NCBI RefSeq assembly: GCF_056746865.1
Contig: NZ_CM163382.1
Direction: 5' to 3' (one strand)
Length of the DNA stretch: 64,000 nt
Part shown: positions 1,586 to 8,316 of the stretch, one piece after another
Layout of the letters: each line of letters begins with the position of its first letter
How positions within the stretch are numbered: position 1 is the first letter of the stretch
Program-made: the position numbers and the translations under genes
Notes under the pieces: model-generated
What the model saw: the letters and a program-made list of their open reading frames with translations, nothing else
Told to the model about the DNA's origin: nothing
The model's database searches: none

Positions 1586-1674
1586 ACCACCAGAATAACC
1601 TTCTGCTCCGGCCTGGTGTTTTCACCACGCCACTGTCCCATTTTTTATCTCTGCATATCAGGAAAATCTTCAGT

Positions 1675-1733
1675 ATGAAAACATTACCCGACACGCATGT
1701 ACGGGAGGTATCGTGCTGCCCGTCTCCAGTCAC
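1675..1733 (+). pseudogene. cbtA/yeeV-family toxin gene, 5' fragment (MKTLPDTHVREVSCCPSPVT) interrupted by the IS21-family insertion
   Basis: ATG at 1675 a short distance after the antitoxin stop; the first ~20 codons match the CbtA-family N-terminus, then the reading frame runs into the IS terminus at 1734. Confidence 0.7.
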
Positions 1734-1832
1734 TGCGTATTCCGCTCTATTCGATCACGGATTGGCATCGAAGTCCGATCAGCGATTCGCATCCATTCGA
1801 TCAACCGGGAACTTAACTTTTTCTACCGCTTT

Positions 1833-2588
1833 TTAACGCGTTTTTTCGCTGCTTTCCACTACCGGGGGATTTTTCCTCAGTGACTCTCCCTGAAGGACCA
1901 CCCGGTGTGAGTTATGTACCAGTCTGTCCAGGATGGCATCTGCTGTTGTTGGGTTCTCCATCAGACCATGCCATTTATCTACCGGGAACTGGCTTACCAC
2001 TATCGTGCTGCTTTGTCCGTAACGATCCTCTATGAGCTCCAGAAGGTCATTACACTGGGCGTTACTTAACTGTTCCAGCCCCAGATCGTCCAGGATTAGA
2101 ACCTGTATTTTTTGCAACTGTTTCAGATATTTCAGCCAGCTGCCATCAACACGTCCCTGAGCCAGTTGTTCCAGTAATCGCCCGGTTCTACAGTACCGGA
2201 CGCTGTGTTTCTGTCGACATGCCTGTTCGCCCAGCGCATTGGCTATCCAGCTCTTGCCACATCCTGTCGGACCGGTTATCAGCAGGTTTTTCCTGTGGGT
2301 TATGTAGTGGCCGTTCAGCAGTTCTCTCATCTGTTCAGCCCGCAGACCTCTTGAGGCCGGATAGCGCAGCCCTTCCGGTGTTGCCTGGTATTTCAGGCCG
2401 GCATTTTTTCTCAACCGTGCCACACGGCTGTTTTCCCTGCTCAGAAGCTCGTCATCAACCAGCAGCGTCAGCCTTTCCTCGAACGACAGTTCGTCGTAGG
2501 TCTGAGGCGTTTCCCGCTGCCGTATCAGGCTCCCGGCCATCGCCGGGAGTTTCAGTTGGGTCAGTTTGTTTAACAGGTTATCACTCAT
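1833..2588 (-). CDS. istB: IS21-family transposition helper ATPase IstB
   Basis: About 251 aa from ATG at 2588 (MSDNLLNKL..); Walker A motif GPTGCGKS and a DnaC/IstB-like AAA+ core; immediately downstream of istA. Confidence 0.85.
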   Translation of the reverse strand: MSDNLLNKLTQLKLPAMAGSLIRQRETPQTYDELSFEERLTLLVDDELLSRENSRVARLRKNAGLKYQATPEGLRYPASRGLRAEQMRELLNGHYITHRKNLLITGPTGCGKSWIANALGEQACRQKHSVRYCRTGRLLEQLAQGRVDGSWLKYLKQLQKIQVLILDDLGLEQLSNAQCNDLLELIEDRYGQSSTIVVSQFPVDKWHGLMENPTTADAILDRLVHNSHRVVLQGESLRKNPPVVESSEKTR

Positions 2589-2604
2589 ACTGTTGTTCCT
2601 TCTG

Positions 2605-4140
2605 TCAGTGGTAGTAGCCCGGACCACGCAGGTTTTCATGCTCTGAAGCATATGCCGGATGTTGTTCGCCCTGGCGGGATAATGGAAGCTCCAGGTTCTC
2701 CCGATGGTGACGCAGCAGATTGTCGATAAAGCGTCTGTCAGGGGCGTTATAGTGCAGGGCAACGTAACAGGCCTTTTCCAGCCGTTCCGGGCCGTATTTT
2801 TTCTGAAGTGCCAGCAGCCCCAGAACTGCACGATAAGCCAGTTCCGGATGGGGTTTTGCCTTCAGCATGGATTCAACCACCCGGCCTGTGGACGGGCCCG
2901 TACGTTTTCCCTGCTCGATCAGGCGTTCCGGTGTCCATGTCCCGTGCTGCCGGTGGCGCTCTGGCATGTGAAGCGGATTGGTTGTGTGTTTATATTCATG
3001 TGTGCTGCGCGGATGTTGCGCCACACACTGCCCCTTGTGCCAGAGCTGTACCACCGACTGCCCCGCCTTCAGTGACAGACGCTGACCGACCAGTTCGTGT
3101 GGAACGGAGTACCAGTGACGGGCATATTCAACGTGGTAGTCAGGGCCAACCTTCACAGCTTTGTATTCCGTGTATTCATAAGGTGCCAGAGGCAGCGGAG
3201 AGAGTGCTGGCGCATCCAGTATGCGGAAGCGTTCTGCACGGGTTTGATTGCCGTACCCCTTCATTGGCCGGTTATTCATGTCTGTCAGTAACTCCCTAAG
3301 GCGCGCATTCAGCGCCCTGAGCGTGTGGAAGGTTTCATTACGGATGCGGGCAAGAAGCCATCGTTCGACGATGAGGACGCCGTTTTCTGCTTTTGGTTTA
3401 TCTTTAGGTTTGCGTGGTCGGGCCGGGATGATAACCGTGCCATAGTGCTCAGCCAGTGCCTGATAACTGTCGTTGATGACAGGCTCATATCGATCGGCCT
3501 TTTTCACTGCGCTTCTGAGGTTATCGGGGATGAGCAGCTTCGGTACGCCGCCCAGGAAGGTCAGGCAACGGCTGTGGGCATTTAACCATGACATCATGTC
3601 CTGACCTTCGCACGCTTCAACGTAGGTATAGTTGGACGCCCCCATTACGGCCACGAAGATTGCCACGCGGCGTATCTCACCGGTGTCCGGATTAATAACA
3701 GGAACCGTAGGACCACAGAAGTCGATAAAAAGCTTTTCGCCGGCACGATGCTCCTGGCGCATGGAGAGACGTCGCGTTTTTTTCCACTCCCGGTAGCAAC
3801 GGCAGAAGTGCGAGTATCCCATCGCTTTGTTACCCGCCTGTGCCTTGTATTCCATCCACAACAGTTGCCGCGTCACACCTGGTTTTCTCATTTCCGTATC
3901 GAGGTACAACATGTCAGGCATTACAAGCTCTGATGCAAAGGTGTCTTTGGGCGGAAAAATGAGTTTCTCCAGCGTGTCATGGGATATATCAGCAGGTAAT
4001 GGCCATGACAGAGAAGAGGCTTTGAAGCGGGCAAGAACCTCAAAAACGGTTGAGGCGCTGATGTGTAACGTCAGTCCGATACAACGGTTAGTCAGCTTCT
4101 TGTCGAACTTGAGCTGAAGAATCTTAAAACAGGTTTCCAT
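2605..4140 (-). CDS. istA: IS21-family transposase IstA (HTH + DDE)
   Basis: 512-aa product from ATG at 4140 (METCFKILQ..) with AGGAG 5 nt upstream; N-terminal HTH-like region and central integrase/DDE-like region; followed 16 nt later by istB. Confidence 0.8.
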   Translation of the reverse strand: METCFKILQLKFDKKLTNRCIGLTLHISASTVFEVLARFKASSLSWPLPADISHDTLEKLIFPPKDTFASELVMPDMLYLDTEMRKPGVTRQLLWMEYKAQAGNKAMGYSHFCRCYREWKKTRRLSMRQEHRAGEKLFIDFCGPTVPVINPDTGEIRRVAIFVAVMGASNYTYVEACEGQDMMSWLNAHSRCLTFLGGVPKLLIPDNLRSAVKKADRYEPVINDSYQALAEHYGTVIIPARPRKPKDKPKAENGVLIVERWLLARIRNETFHTLRALNARLRELLTDMNNRPMKGYGNQTRAERFRILDAPALSPLPLAPYEYTEYKAVKVGPDYHVEYARHWYSVPHELVGQRLSLKAGQSVVQLWHKGQCVAQHPRSTHEYKHTTNPLHMPERHRQHGTWTPERLIEQGKRTGPSTGRVVESMLKAKPHPELAYRAVLGLLALQKKYGPERLEKACYVALHYNAPDRRFIDNLLRHHRENLELPLSRQGEQHPAYASEHENLRGPGYYH

Positions 4141-4372
4141 AGTGCTCCTGGATTTTCTCTTTCTGGACATTGACGTCTCCACTGGTTTAAACACGGCAAT
4201 GGAGACTGTGGTGAAAAGAGTTAATTCCCGGAGTGACTGGCAGGATGCCAATCAATGATCGGAAGCATGCCAAATCGTGATCGATTGTGATGCCAAACTG
4301 TGATCGGAGATGGATGCCAAATCATGATCGATTCGAATGCCAAACTGCGATCGATTCAGATGCCATTTTGCA

Positions 4373-4417
4373 GTCACCATCTGGCAGACACTGCTCACCC
4401 GGTTACTGGACCAGCAT
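4373..4417 (+). pseudogene. cbtA-family toxin gene, short continuation after the IS (..IWQTLLTRLLDQH), then unrelated sequence
   Basis: Removing the IS and one GTCAC copy restores ..PSPVTIWQTLLTRLLDQH in frame; downstream the sequence no longer encodes a CbtA-like protein (deleted or decayed). Confidence 0.6.
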
Positions 4418-5156
4418 TCCCTGATTTCCTCATCGATATCGAATAAGCACTCGTCGCAGAATTCTTTATCGAGTGAGAGCCTCTGTTCAAGGACGCTTCT
4501 TTTTTTTGTTGCAACGTGCACATCCCTTCATCTTTCCGCGCCTTTGTGACCTCGTGATTTGGGGTACATGGAAAATGGGCGTAGCAAGCCTCAGCTAGAT
4601 AACTAACCGTAATAAAAGGGCTTTTCTGCGAGCAATGTAAGAGAAGGATAACTAGGCAGGTTGCAAGAAAGATAATCGTTTTGATAGATCAGTTTATCGA
4701 TATTGATCGTTAGTGCCGATCGATAAGAAGTGCGGAAACGTTAGACTCACCTCTGTTGCTCCATCATGATGATGGGGCTGTTGGCCCTCGAATCTATCTG
4801 TCTATTAGCATCGGCATGACAAACACCATTTGTTTCCACAACAAAAGACAATAGAAAAGTACATATGTACAAAAAGTGTGATTTATTCTGTCACTTCAGT
4901 ACTTCCTTTCGCCTAAGTTTGCCCGTAATAATTCCCCGTGCAGTACTATTGTTGCGACATAACAACATGAATTACATGGTAATAATAGATGTTTTCCTCT
5001 GCTGATTCCTGTAAGGATCATGACTCCATACGACATCATTTTTAATTTTATACAGTTCAAAAAATCTACATGTGTCACAAATAATTTTACATTTGATAAT
5101 GTATAGTTGTCACATGACAAGTTGATTATCATTCTGTGTAGACAAGGAGAACTGTT

Positions 5157-6416
5157 ATGACGGATTCAATTCCATCAGGTTACAAGCCGCTGACATGTGA
5201 CACGCTGCCGGGTTATCTCTCGTCCAGACTGACCCCTTCATGCGAACCGGGAGGGTTACCTGAAGAGTGGAAAGTTTCAGAAGTGGGGGACGGAAACCTG
5301 AACATGGTGTTTATCGTTGAGGGGACACATAAAACCATCATTGTAAAACAAGCTCTGCCCTGGCTTCGTGCCGGGGGCGAAGGATGGCCTTTATCTCTGA
5401 GCCGTGCGGGCTTTGAGTACAACGTCTTATGTCAGGAAGCCAAGTACGCGGGTCACACACTGATTCCGCAGGTCTATTTTTACGACCCGGAAATGGCGCT
5501 GTTTGCCATGGAGTATCTGACTCCTCACGTGATTCTGCGTAAGGAACTGATTAACGGTAAAAAATTCCCTAAACTAGCTGAAGATATCGGCAGATTTTTA
5601 GCACAGACTCTCTTCAATACGTCTGACATTGGCATGTCAGCAGAACAGAAAAAAGCGCTTACTGCCGAGTTCGCGTTGAATCATGAGCTGTGCAAAATTA
5701 CGGAAGATCTGATCTTCACAGAGCCCTATTACAACGCTGAACGGAATAACTGGACTTCTCCTGAGCTGGACGATGCCGTCCATAAGGCCTGGGCTGATGT
5801 AGAGATGATCCAGGTTGCCATGCGTTATAAGTACAAATTTATGACAGAAGCGCAGGCATTGTTACATGGCGACCTTCATTCAGGCTCAATCATGGTGACC
5901 GACACGGATACCAAAGTGATTGATCCGGAGTTCGGTTTCATGGGGCCAATGGCGTTTGATATCGGCAACTATATTGGCAACCTCCTGCTGGCGTACTTCT
6001 CACGCCCTGGGTGGGATGCGAATGAGCAACGTCGCGCTGACTATCAGGAATGGCTGCTTCAGCAGATTGTCCAAACCTGGTCCGTTTTCACCCGGGAGTT
6101 CCGCCAGCTCTGGGACAACAAAACACAGGGCGACGCGTGGTCGACAGAAATGTATCAACAGAACAGGGCCGCTCTTGAGGACGCACAGGATCAGTTTTTT
6201 GCCACGCTGCTTGAAGATTCCCTGGTGAATGCCGGCATGGAAATGAATCGCCGGATCATTGGTTTTGCTGGCGTTGCCGAGCTGAAACAGATTGAAAATA
6301 CAGAGCTTCGCGCAGGATGTGAACGACGTGCATTGACCATGGCGCGCGATCTTATCGTCAATGCCCGCCAGTTTAAAAATATGGATTCCGTCATCCAGTC
6401 TGCGAAGGTTAAGTAA
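5157..6416 (+). CDS. mtnK: 5-methylthioribose kinase (MtnK-type sugar kinase of the APH/choline-kinase-like fold)
   Basis: 419 aa; RBS AAGGAGA 7 nt upstream; catalytic-loop LLHGDLHSGSIMV and IDPEFGFMGPMAFDIG motifs characteristic of MtnK. Confidence 0.8.
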   Translation: MTDSIPSGYKPLTCDTLPGYLSSRLTPSCEPGGLPEEWKVSEVGDGNLNMVFIVEGTHKTIIVKQALPWLRAGGEGWPLSLSRAGFEYNVLCQEAKYAGHTLIPQVYFYDPEMALFAMEYLTPHVILRKELINGKKFPKLAEDIGRFLAQTLFNTSDIGMSAEQKKALTAEFALNHELCKITEDLIFTEPYYNAERNNWTSPELDDAVHKAWADVEMIQVAMRYKYKFMTEAQALLHGDLHSGSIMVTDTDTKVIDPEFGFMGPMAFDIGNYIGNLLLAYFSRPGWDANEQRRADYQEWLLQQIVQTWSVFTREFRQLWDNKTQGDAWSTEMYQQNRAALEDAQDQFFATLLEDSLVNAGMEMNRRIIGFAGVAELKQIENTELRAGCERRALTMARDLIVNARQFKNMDSVIQSAKVK

Positions 6417-6425
6417 GAGGTCATT

Positions 6426-7541
6426 ATGAATATTAAAGGTAAACACTATCGTACGGTCTGGGTTTCCGGGGATGGAAAAGCGGTAGAAATCATCGATCAG
6501 ACTAAGTTGCCTTTTAAGTTCGAGGTGGTGGCGCTTACCTCTGCGGAAATGGCCGCTACGGCTATTCAGGATATGTGGGTTCGTGGCGCTCCGCTTATTG
6601 GTGTCGTTGCAGCCTATGGCATCGCGCTGGGAATGAATCACGATGCCAGTGACATGGGTCTGCAGCGTTACTATGACCTTCTTATCAAAACCCGACCAAC
6701 GGCAATTAATCTCAAATGGGCCCTCGACAGGATGATAGACACACTGAAGGATCTCTGTGTATCAGAGCGCAAGGATGTGGCCTGGGCGCTGGCGGCAGAA
6801 ATTGCCGAGGAAGATGTCGCGTTGTGTGAACAAATTGGATTACATGGTGCAGAAGTCATCCGCGAAATAGCCCAGAAAAAACCGGCCGGGAGTGTGGTCA
6901 ATATCCTGACACATTGTAACGCAGGCTGGCTGGCGACTGTAGACTGGGGAACCGCGCTTTCTCCCATCTACAAAGCGCATGAAAACGGAATCCCTGTTCA
7001 CGTCTGGGTGGATGAAACGCGGCCACGTAATCAGGGCGGACTCACGGCATTTGAACTGGGCTCACACGGTATTCCTCACACCCTGATCGCCGACAACGCG
7101 GGTGGCCACCTGATGCAACACGGTGACGTTGATCTCTGCATTGTTGGGACCGATCGAACCACGGCCAGAGGGGATGTCTGTAATAAAATTGGTACCTATC
7201 TTAAGGCGCTGGCGGCCCATGATAACCATGTTCCCTTCTACGTCGCGTTACCTTCTCCCACTATTGACTGGACTATCGAGGACGGAAAAAGCATTCCGAT
7301 TGAGCAACGTGACGGAAAAGAGCAGTCCCATGTCTATGGGATAAACCCTCAGGGAGAATTGAGCTGGGTCAATACCGCCCCTGAAGGAACCCGTTGTGGG
7401 AACTACGCTTTCGACGTCACGCCTGCCCGATACATTACCGGCTTCATTACTGAGCGGGGAGTCTGTGCTGCCAGTAAGTCAGCGCTGGCGGATATGTTTG
7501 CTGACCTGAAGAGTAAAGCACTCCAGGGGGAACAGCATTAA
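6426..7541 (+). CDS. mtnA: S-methyl-5-thioribose-1-phosphate isomerase (MtnA, eIF-2B alpha/beta/delta-like family)
   Basis: 371 aa; 9 nt after mtnK; eIF2B-like fold motifs ([31 protein letters not shown]). Confidence 0.8.
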
Positions 7542-7571
7542 AACAGCGGCCATTGCTATTAAGGATCAGGA

Positions 7572-8213
7572 ATGGAACGGATTAAGTTAGCAGAAAAAAT
7601 CATTTCCACTTGTCGGGAAATGAATGCGTCAGGTCTTAATCAAGGAACATCAGGTAATGTGAGTGCCAGGTATACCGGTGGCATGTTGATTACGCCGAGT
7701 GGGATCGCTTATTCAAAGATGACGCCGGACATGATTGTCTTTGTAGACGATAAGGGAAAACCTGAAGCGGGTAAAATACCATCAAGTGAATGGTTAATTC
7801 ATCTGGCGTGTTATAAAGCCAGACCAGAATTGAATGCTGTCATACATACGCATGCGGTGAATTCCACGGCGGTGGCAATACATAATCATTCAATTCCGGC
7901 CATTCATTATATGGTGGCGGTATCGGGGACGGATCATATTCCCTGTATTCCCTATTATACCTTTGGCAGTCCTGAACTGGCCGACGGTGTATCTAAAGGA
8001 ATCAGAGAAAGTAAGTCCTTGCTGATGCAGCACCACGGTATGCTGGCCATGGACGTCACGCTGGAAAAGACGTTGTGGCTGGCGGGTGAAACCGAGACGC
8101 TGGCTGATTTATACATCAAATGTGGCGGATTACATCACGATGTTCCCGTGCTGTCTGAAGCCGAAATGACCATCGTCCTTGAAAAATTCAAAACGTATGG
8201 TTTGAAAGCGTAA
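7572..8213 (+). CDS. class II aldolase (FucA-like); candidate 5-methylthioribulose-1-P / 5-deoxyribulose-1-P aldolase
   Basis: 213 aa, very similar in length and sequence to L-fuculose-phosphate aldolase (MER.KLA..II.TC.EM...GLNQGTSGNVS..., HTH.. metal-binding histidines); directly follows mtnK-mtnA. Confidence 0.75.
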   Translation: MERIKLAEKIISTCREMNASGLNQGTSGNVSARYTGGMLITPSGIAYSKMTPDMIVFVDDKGKPEAGKIPSSEWLIHLACYKARPELNAVIHTHAVNSTAVAIHNHSIPAIHYMVAVSGTDHIPCIPYYTFGSPELADGVSKGIRESKSLLMQHHGMLAMDVTLEKTLWLAGETETLADLYIKCGGLHHDVPVLSEAEMTIVLEKFKTYGLKA

Positions 8214-8316
8214 TTACAGCTTTATTTTAATTAATAACATATGACAGCCATTCGCAGAATGGCTGCTATTCCCTCTGTCCACAACGATTGATTATAACTA
8301 CCACAAGGAGTTATTT

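Follow-up and report, generated by a model that had tools for sequence, protein, structure and literature searches.

The spacer upstream of mtnK in an Escherichia coli leuX island: a probable mosaic of the mtn control region, with candidate MtnR operators, and a small-ORF/GT2 relic

Introduction

How much of the DNA that lies in front of the mtnK gene of Escherichia coli belongs to the control of that gene, and which part of it does the dedicated repressor recognise? The question is raised by a stretch of 64,000 nucleotides (RefSeq assembly GCF_056746865.1, contig NZ_CM163382.1; hereafter the window), in which positions 4418–5156 form a spacer of about 740 bp directly upstream of mtnK. Megablast with the mtnK region leads to E. 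coli, and the window represents the leuX-island region. The spacer is followed by the mtnK open reading frame (ORF, 5157–6416) and by ORFs at 6426–7541, 7572–8213 and 8317–9321, which encode mtnA, a class II aldolase (ald2) and a GRP-type transporter; the convergent yjhU gene (9362–10348, minus strand) closes the cluster, the gene names being those of the RefSeq annotation of E. coli FDAARGOS_497 (locus L001). This is the arrangement of the dihydroxyacetone phosphate (DHAP) shunt operon with its control region in front. An earlier note on the window, made from the letters alone, had called the spacer unassigned and had considered it the probable site of the mtn promoter and of operator(s) through which a regulator responsive to sugar phosphates, such as YjhU, acts; an island junction was thought possible.

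What this region is and does is already known. Huening et al. (2025, J Bacteriol; PMC12632272) studied the 799 bp intergenic region upstream of mtnK in strain ATCC 25922. With lacZ fusions they located a regulated promoter 66–126 bp upstream of mtnK, found a 126-bp fragment upstream of the gene to be sufficient for regulated expression, and placed the start of this promoter, P1, by primer extension “72 bp upstream” of mtnK. A second promoter, P2, is weak and unregulated or constitutive, with a start 188 bp upstream according to the main text and 218 bp upstream according to a figure legend. No start site was found 381–709 bp upstream of mtnK, nor did the far-upstream fragments UR1 and UR2 show promoter activity toward the gene (PMC12632272); the primer sequences given there place the ends of UR1 and UR2 near 4560 and 4722 of the window. 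Deletion of yjhU, renamed mtnR, derepresses P1. Growth on 5-deoxyribose depends on CRP, and an electrophoretic mobility shift assay shows that CRP shifts the P1/P2 fragment, CRP sites being predicted at −35.5 (the best) and −17.5. According to the authors, neither the recognition sequence of MtnR nor the exact position of CRP is known; as the MtnR element they suggest the semi-palindrome CAAAT-N8-ATTTG, which corresponds to 5078–5095 of the window, and they group MtnR with DeoR, GlpR and FucR of E. coli. They report the full-length spacer in 1,569 of 1,847 genomes, and the “closest upstream ORF” of their paper is the 84-aa N-terminal GT2 fragment WP_000788354, which is kept in E. coli Nissle (PMC12632272). 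Both the promoter and the operator(s) that the earlier note expected thus have experimental counterparts: two mapped transcription start sites and a sufficient 126 bp for the one, repression of P1 by YjhU (MtnR) for the other (PMC12632272). The word “unassigned” stands insofar as the spacer is unannotated in genomes; its proximal part has been studied experimentally (PMC12632272). In the literature searched we found no later paper on the MtnR operator. To the published picture we add a dissection of the spacer as a mosaic and an operator motif open to testing, and we point out an inconsistency in the promoter geometry.

Results and Discussion

The spacer closely matches the ATCC 25922/Nissle-type 5′ region, including the minimal ~250 bp that is common to all operon-positive strains. 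Among the 5426 complete E. coli genomes of the collection, 1082 contain it, nearly always at least 99% identical and never annotated; 1027 genomes cover at least 80% of it. The upstream allele of Nissle (locus L016) is 99.1% identical to the window over 802 bp. A divergent mtnK-upstream allele, 80–90% identical to the common one, is present in about a dozen complete E. coli genomes. A search of a plasmid collection returned only E. coli chromosome-like records.

How far, then, does the DNA that travels with the mtn operon reach? We compared the upstream regions after a MtnK scan of one genome per species, and an invariant promoter 21-mer was scanned against metagenomes, which gave 14 matches: six genuine alleles, which were added, and eight chance matches in unrelated DNA. 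In Citrobacter sp. On2M the region is 88% identical, with homology from exactly position 4417 of the window onward. C. amalonaticus is homologous only from about 4838–4875 (about 320 bp) and Providencia rettgeri only from about 5056 (about 100 bp); the metagenome alleles have left homology borders at 4547, 4774 and 5054, and allele L034 shares about 100 bp upstream of mtnK. From this comparison we can conclude that 5054–5156 is certainly mtn-specific, and the DNA from about 4838 probably so. Everything considered, the spacer is very probably a mosaic created by island rearrangement, in which a right-hand mtn control region with candidate MtnR operators is joined to a left-hand relic of a dead small-ORF/GT2 module.

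The relic can be followed in detail. On the minus strand, 4418–4531 aligns at the nucleotide level with an intact ORF of Nissle that encodes a 55-aa CxxC-N17-CxxC protein, and is a pseudogene of it. The start codon lies at 4531–4529, a +1 frameshift occurs in the homopolymer at 4500–4507 (8 bases instead of 7), and the 3′ end is lost after codon 38 at 4417/4418, so that codons 1–38 remain. The earlier statement that the spacer holds no ORF with coding character consequently fails for this segment, which is the remnant of a conserved ORF. The intact ORF (L016 3946..4113, minus strand, 55 aa, MKRCARCNKKRSVLEQRLSLDKEFCDECLFDIDEEIRERRIITIRRLKDDNERKS) is preserved in On2M too, and homology of the two strains runs 54 bp beyond the junction, up to its stop codon. 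PGAP makes no call for it in Nissle. The family comprises 32 database proteins of 54–55 aa from Lelliottia, Enterobacter, Citrobacter, Klebsiella, Kluyvera and Yokenella, with the four cysteines invariant in all of them. The small ORF found no family match in Pfam, NCBIfam or PADLOC, and PADLOC found no defence-system match for the GT2 and YjhU proteins. In all three genomes examined (Lelliottia, Yokenella and Klebsiella) the small ORF lies 6–80 bp upstream of a gene for a GT2 glycosyltransferase of 312–329 aa, with no mtnK nearby. The pairs are neighboured by CbtA/CbeA, McrBC or SMODS/ThiF/JAB (CBASS-like) genes and sit at the ends of CP4-like islands of Enterobacteriaceae; the module loci are L016 3685–4113 (minus strand), L020 5001–6113 (Lelliottia jeotgali), L021 5001–6146 and L023 5001–6237.

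The segment next to the pseudogene, 4532–4734 on the minus strand, is 87% identical to the DNA upstream of the small-ORF/GT2 pair in Lelliottia jeotgali (L020), a locus without mtnK, and is probably the former promoter region of the small ORF. The 87% identity to Lelliottia covers the ORF itself as well as about 200 bp of DNA in front of it. The following positions, 4735–4837, form a linker of unknown origin, which is common only to E. coli and Citrobacter-type alleles and contains homology borders, for example that at 4774. These homologies indicate that 4418–4734 is a relic of the small-ORF/GT2 module and that only about 4838–5156 travels with the mtn operon. Here the frameshifted and truncated copy of the small ORF has no GT2 gene left. 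The possibility raised earlier that the spacer is nothing but a degenerate gene remnant does not apply: a part of it is such a remnant, yet the comparative alignment reveals conserved motifs across mtn-positive genomes. The suspected island junctions are present as well. One lies at 4417/4418, between a cbtA stub and the small-ORF relic; one lies at 4734–4838, between the small-ORF/GT2 module and the mtn module; and an insertion of the IS21 family is found just outside the interval. We detected no tRNA or att remnant in the spacer, and the whole window contains 0 tRNA genes.

That the entire 740 bp could be dedicated, complex regulatory DNA with many operators was a competing explanation, since the full-length spacer is at least 99% identical in most mtn-positive E. 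coli (1,569/1,847 genomes; PMC12632272). This identity reflects, however, recent common descent within E. coli. Outside the species the homology to mtn-positive genomes shrinks to the about 320 bp of C. amalonaticus and the about 100 bp of Providencia and L034, while 4418–4734 finds its homologue at a locus without mtnK. UR1 and UR2 were moreover inactive, and no start site lies 381–709 bp upstream (PMC12632272). We regard this explanation as very unlikely and as largely refuted. It would have included the ATCGAT-containing palindromic stretches among the operators. These stretches do exist, at 4432, 4696 and 4719 (3 in about 830 bp compared with 20 in the window), and those at 4696 and 4719 fall within the 5′ flank of the small ORF; they belong to the unrelated relic and not to the mtn promoter. 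The spacer is accordingly control DNA of mtn in its right-hand 100–320 bp, and the remaining left part is not mtn-regulatory.

What does the right-hand part contain? The DNA in front of the ribosome binding site is indeed AT-rich, with a GC content of 0.278 at 5031–5156, 0.392 in the spacer and 0.493 in the window, and the site itself (AAGGAG, 5144–5149) precedes the ATG of mtnK at 5157. Conservation was computed on a nine-allele alignment as the sliding mean pairwise identity. It amounts to 0.9–0.96 at 5061–5140, and the rest to the ATG is invariant in the alignment; indeed, the whole mtnK leader is unchanged across the nine alleles. The mean is 0.81 at 5021–5040, about 0.75 at 4881–4920 and about 0.5 at 4941–5000. 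A distal conserved block of the mtn module (4838–4920, plus strand) carries an invariant ACAAAAG, a 12-bp palindrome and the motif CTGnCAnT, which is TGTCACT at 4889. The TGTCAC(A/T) repeats noticed earlier are confirmed at 4889, 5073 and 5108 on the plus strand and at 5196 on the minus strand; like ATCGAT they are locally enriched, with 4 sites in about 830 bp compared with 24 in 128 kb (both strands).

The published promoters map onto this pattern as follows. The P2 region (4926–4969, plus strand) contains an AT-rich −10-like TAATAAT at 4926–4932, and its start would be 4939 if it lies 218 bp upstream of mtnK or 4969 if it lies 188 bp upstream (PMC12632272). The regulated promoter P1 (5057–5092, plus strand) fits the −35 hexamer TTCAAA (5057–5062) and the −10 hexamer AATAAT (5080–5085), which are compatible with the publication and are returned by a consensus scan as TTCAAA-18-AATAAT. 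Counted as 72 bp upstream, its start is 5085, while the CRP offsets, mapped by eye, imply about 5089 (PMC12632272). On the sequence, the published distances are therefore mutually inconsistent, both for P2 (188 versus 218 bp) and for P1 (5085 versus about 5089). The two predicted CRP sites, 18 bp apart and again mapped by eye, occupy 5043–5082 on the plus strand (PMC12632272). The first candidate, TTTTA-N6-TCAAA, is centred at 5053.5 and its left half is not conserved; the second, ATCTA-N6-TCACA, is centred at 5071.5 and has a perfect TCACA half, conserved across alleles.

More importantly, AATAAT (5080–5085) is the only −10 compatible with the published start, yet it is the most variable spot of the core, where we also read AATGCT, AATCAA, AACATA, AATAAA, AATGAT and AATTGA. 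Beside it stands the block GATAATGTATAGT (5095–5107, plus strand), which is unchanged in all alleles and holds the alternative −10 hexamers GATAAT (5095–5100) and TATAGT (5102–5107); for the former the consensus scan gives GTGTCA-17-GATAAT. That the least-conserved element is the published −10, next to an invariant 13-bp block, suggests that the start site needs re-mapping. For the TCACA site to be at about −42.5, TATAGT would have to be the −10, which contradicts the reported start. Class II CRP sites are centred near −41.5. On the minus strand lies the spacer's best match to the sigma-70 consensus (GTGACA-18-TAAAAT, 5113..5084, 10/12 positions); it points away from mtnK and overlaps both operator candidates described next.

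Where might MtnR bind? Two palindromes flank the invariant block: O1, TTTACATTTGATAA at 5086–5099, which is invariant in the nine alleles, and O2, TTGTCACATGACAA at 5107–5120, whose centre lies 21 bp from that of O1 and which includes TGTCACA. Both are candidate MtnR operators. The common skeleton TTNNCANNTGNNAA has two matches in the 64-kb window, and both are in the promoter, namely O1 and O2. The position of O2 reads CTTTGCATATGTAAAG in Providencia (given elsewhere as TTTGCATATGTAAA) and is the perfect palindrome TTGTCATATGACAA in Citrobacter On2M. Morganella promoters carry two TACA(T/A)(A/T)TGTA cores exactly 21 bp apart around TATAAT, and in Aliivibrio TTTACAAATGTAAA occurs just before the ABC-transporter gene that heads the operon. 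We trained a position weight matrix (PWM) only on the Morganella and Providencia sites and applied it to independent loci. Its best matches in Vibrio (three species), Aliivibrio and Xenorhabdus fall into intergenic regions that are divergent from yjhU or lie upstream of the transporter or of mtnK. When a similar PWM is run over the 64,000 positions of the window, the distal palindrome takes rank 5 and O1 ranks 8 and 15.

This distal palindrome, GTACATATGTAC at 4859–4870, about 297 bp upstream of mtnK, is the perfect 12-bp palindrome that the earlier note had singled out, and it is a candidate auxiliary MtnR operator. The paired Morganella sites have exactly its core, TACATATGTA. E. coli has GTACATATGTAC at this position and four alleles share ATACATATGTAT; On2M has ATACATGTGTAT, C. 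amalonaticus GACAGCTGTA and L034 AACAACTGTA, so that ACAnnTGTA is invariant in 9/9 alleles with variable flanks. Two further near-palindromes resemble each other, CTGACATGTGACAC at 5190–5203, inside the mtnK coding sequence, and TCTACATGTGTCAC at 5065–5078. With centres at 5196.5 and 5071.5 they are roughly in 21-bp phase with O1 and O2, and they could be extra weak operator-like sites or a coincidence.

Taken together, these motifs allow a tentative proposal, which we hold to be possible rather than probable: palindromes of the form TTnnCAnnTGnnAA/TACATATGTA would be the MtnR operator, with O1 and O2 in phase and perhaps a third copy at 5065–5078, the distal palindrome (−297) would take part in a repression loop, and the true −10 would be GATAAT/TATAGT and not AATAAT. 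As such, the assignment of these candidate operators would be a modest addition to the published regulation.

Several observations weigh against it. The skeleton TTNNCANNTGNNAA was partly derived from the E. coli sites, which makes the two matches in 64 kb partly circular; their number equals the chance expectation of 2.0, and it is only where they lie that is striking. With the PWM from other genera O2 has a poor score, and in C. amalonaticus and L034 the changes in its arms do not cleanly compensate each other. In the MAFFT alignment the Morganella sites are shifted leftward by one 21-bp register relative to our manual one, which leaves the positional homology ambiguous. The 12-bp palindrome alone is within chance, as the window has 17 perfect ones compared with 16.2 in local shuffles and 22% of shuffled spacers contain at least one; its presence, noted earlier, is confirmed, and any meaning would come from its cross-species conservation only. 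A UR3 fusion, which holds the distal palindrome and P2, was unaffected by deletion of mtnR (PMC12632272). Because of this indifference, and because 126 bp suffices for regulation, the distal site is dispensable on plasmids. The reported start at 5085 lies at canonical distance from no conserved −10. Finally, the published work itself proposes another MtnR element, CAAAT-N8-ATTTG at 5078–5095, which overlaps O1 (PMC12632272).

This last proposal deserves to be weighed in its own right. If MtnR binds CAAAT-N8-ATTTG over the −10 of P1, the TTnnCAnnTGnnAA/TACATATGTA palindromes would be incidental AT-rich features or sites of another factor. The ends of the element are kept in the E. coli and Citrobacter alleles, and the overlap with O1 makes the two models hard to separate. 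Its left arm and interior, however, vary more than any other part of the core (AATAAT, AATGCT, AATCAA, AACATA, AATTGA), it is not kept in Providencia (CATTAACTTTTACAATTG), and nothing corresponds to it in Morganella, Vibrio or Aliivibrio, where the TACAnnTGTA-type motif recurs beside yjhU-linked operons. We consider it unlikely. Far less can be said for a functional small gene or RNA in the spacer, which we judge extremely improbable. The candidates were a 78-aa ORF (4896..5132, minus strand), a 46-aa ORF (4865..5005, plus strand) that starts inside the palindrome, and a structured leader or riboswitch. The 78-aa frame is uninterrupted in E. coli, Nissle and Citrobacter On2M and has the promoter-like GTGACA-18-TAAAAT on its strand at 5113..5084, but in C. 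amalonaticus it is disrupted, the longest ORF there having 31 aa, and the protein diverges far faster than the DNA. The start codon or frame of the 46-aa ORF is lost in On2M and C. amalonaticus, and Pfam gave no match. With neither reading frame nor protein conserved, both the antisense and the sense ORF were rejected as genes. The 5′ untranslated region is the most conserved segment, but the fold of the leader is not significant (z = −1.07), and an Rfam scan of 3500–6000 at E ≤ 1 returned nothing in 4418–5156 and only a spurious snoRNA match inside mtnK. No intrinsic terminators were found in the spacer.

The regulator itself calls for a comment. YjhU matches PF04198 (Sugar-bind) with E = 9e-80 together with generic helix-turn-helix (HTH) models, which is the N-terminal HTH plus PF04198 architecture of the SorC family. 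The models PF08220 and PF00455 (HTH_DeoR and DeoRC), which mark the E. coli DeoR family, are not among the matches listed at E ≤ 0.001. Judged by its Pfam domains, YjhU/MtnR is therefore of the SorC type and not a member of the E. coli DeoR/GlpR/FucR family in which it was placed (PMC12632272). Its orthologues in Citrobacter (99% aa identity), Providencia (89%), Vibrio (78–80%), Aliivibrio (66%) and Morganella (about 60%) are encoded by genes linked to mtnK. In E. coli and Citrobacter, the DNA upstream of yjhU was searched for an MtnR-type autoregulatory site; this gave a weak match only, which is lost in On2M. In Vibrio and Aliivibrio (L004, L005, L006, L013; about 1650–6000) the yjhU orthologue is divergent from an ORF of 130–160 aa and a three-gene ABC-type transporter. 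The ORF and the transporter genes precede mtnK-mtnA-ald2 there, the GRP-type transporter of E. coli is missing, and a hairpin lies just before mtnK.

It remains to describe the left-hand surroundings. The window is base for base identical to E. coli FDAARGOS_497 (L001), with one insertion as the sole difference: L001 4275–6007 corresponds to 1–1733 and L001 6001–12830 to 4371–11200 of the window, with an overlap of 7 bp. The insertion (1734–4370, minus strand) is an IS21-family insertion sequence, ISSso4-like, whose istA (2605–4251, minus strand) and istB (about 1833–2600, minus strand) match annotated IS21-family istA/istB copies with 98% coverage and 99.5–100% identity. Its terminal repeats comprise several ATGCCAAAnnGTGATCGATT-type copies at about 4240–4370 and 1734–1800, and a target duplication (CA)GTCAC is found at 1727–1733 and 4371–4377. 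None of the complete E. coli genomes in the collection has the element at this site (the best coverage of 4200–5200 is 83%). The disrupted feature is an N-terminal pseudogene stub of the CP4-like prophage toxin gene cbtA, with its left part at 1675–1733 and its right part at 4371–4417 on the plus strand, which RefSeq annotates in L001 (5949–6047, 99 bp) as [quoted passage not shown]. In this strain, the IS21-family element is inserted into the cbtA stub. The stub ends at the deletion junction 4417/4418, which is why the interval of the earlier note begins at 4418. In Yokenella the order cbeA-cbtA-DUF5983-...-GT2-small ORF is found, which suggests that the cbtA/small-ORF junction of the window arose by deletion within a Yokenella-like array.

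Conclusion

In summary, we dissected the spacer upstream of mtnK and propose how its parts could work. The right part controls the mtnK-mtnA-ald2-transporter operon of the DHAP shunt. Its promoter P1, within 126 bp of mtnK, needs cAMP-CRP and is repressed by MtnR unless a 5-deoxypentose substrate is present (PMC12632272). MtnR, probably as a dimer, would bind palindromes of the TTnnCAnnTGnnAA form, best with the core TACATATGTA. O1 and O2, with centres 21 bp or two helical turns apart, straddle GATAATGTATAGT and fall at the start site or immediately downstream of it; MtnR bound there would block RNA polymerase at initiation or early elongation. The distal palindrome may be an auxiliary operator that acts, for example, by looping, which is the most speculative step. 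The left part, 4418–4837, probably has no role for mtn and consists of the remnant of a dead 55-aa zinc-ribbon-like ORF with its own upstream region, derived from a small-ORF/GT2 module as present at CP4-like island ends in other Enterobacteriaceae; a deletion would have fused it to the cbtA stub, into which the IS21-family element would later have landed in this strain.

The DHAP shunt allows extraintestinal pathogenic E. coli to grow on waste products of 5′-deoxynucleosides, which gives its control region some interest for the physiology of these strains. As the region has already been dissected experimentally, no new biology arises as to what it is. The analysis offers a testable MtnR operator motif from five genera, and indicates that unrelated relic DNA accounts for two thirds of the “promoter region” employed in comparing strains.

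Compared with the DHAP-shunt operon of ATCC 25922, the locus is the same, with near-identical sequence and the same gene order including the convergent yjhU. The strain of the window differs as a cbtA-junction variant, with about 740 bp upstream of mtnK versus 799 bp; unlike in ATCC 25922, the GT2 fragment is absent, the small ORF is cut, and the IS21-family insertion stands 47 bp further left. With the uncharacterised small-ORF/GT2 module of CP4-like islands, 4418–4734 shares the ORF and its 5′ flank, but the module is dead in the window, where the GT2 gene is deleted; Nissle retains the 84-aa fragment WP_000788354. Like the SorC-family repressors B. subtilis DeoR, CggR and SorC, MtnR adjoins the sugar-phosphate pathway that it represses. 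CggR recognises direct repeats and B. subtilis DeoR a palindrome with a half-site, and these operators differ in sequence from TTnnCAnnTGnnAA. Some features recall class II CRP-dependent, repressor-controlled promoters such as galP1 and deoP2: the TCACA half-site of mtn lies about 30 bp upstream of a conserved −10-like hexamer, the palindromic candidate repressor sites overlap the core promoter, and a distant auxiliary operator is possibly present, as in the looping of gal, lac and deo. Unlike in galP1 and deoP2, the left half of the mtn CRP site is poor in E. coli, and looping for mtn is pure inference. The overall logic, in which CRP activates and a repressor at the core promoter is released by the substrate, is the one that catabolic operons usually follow.

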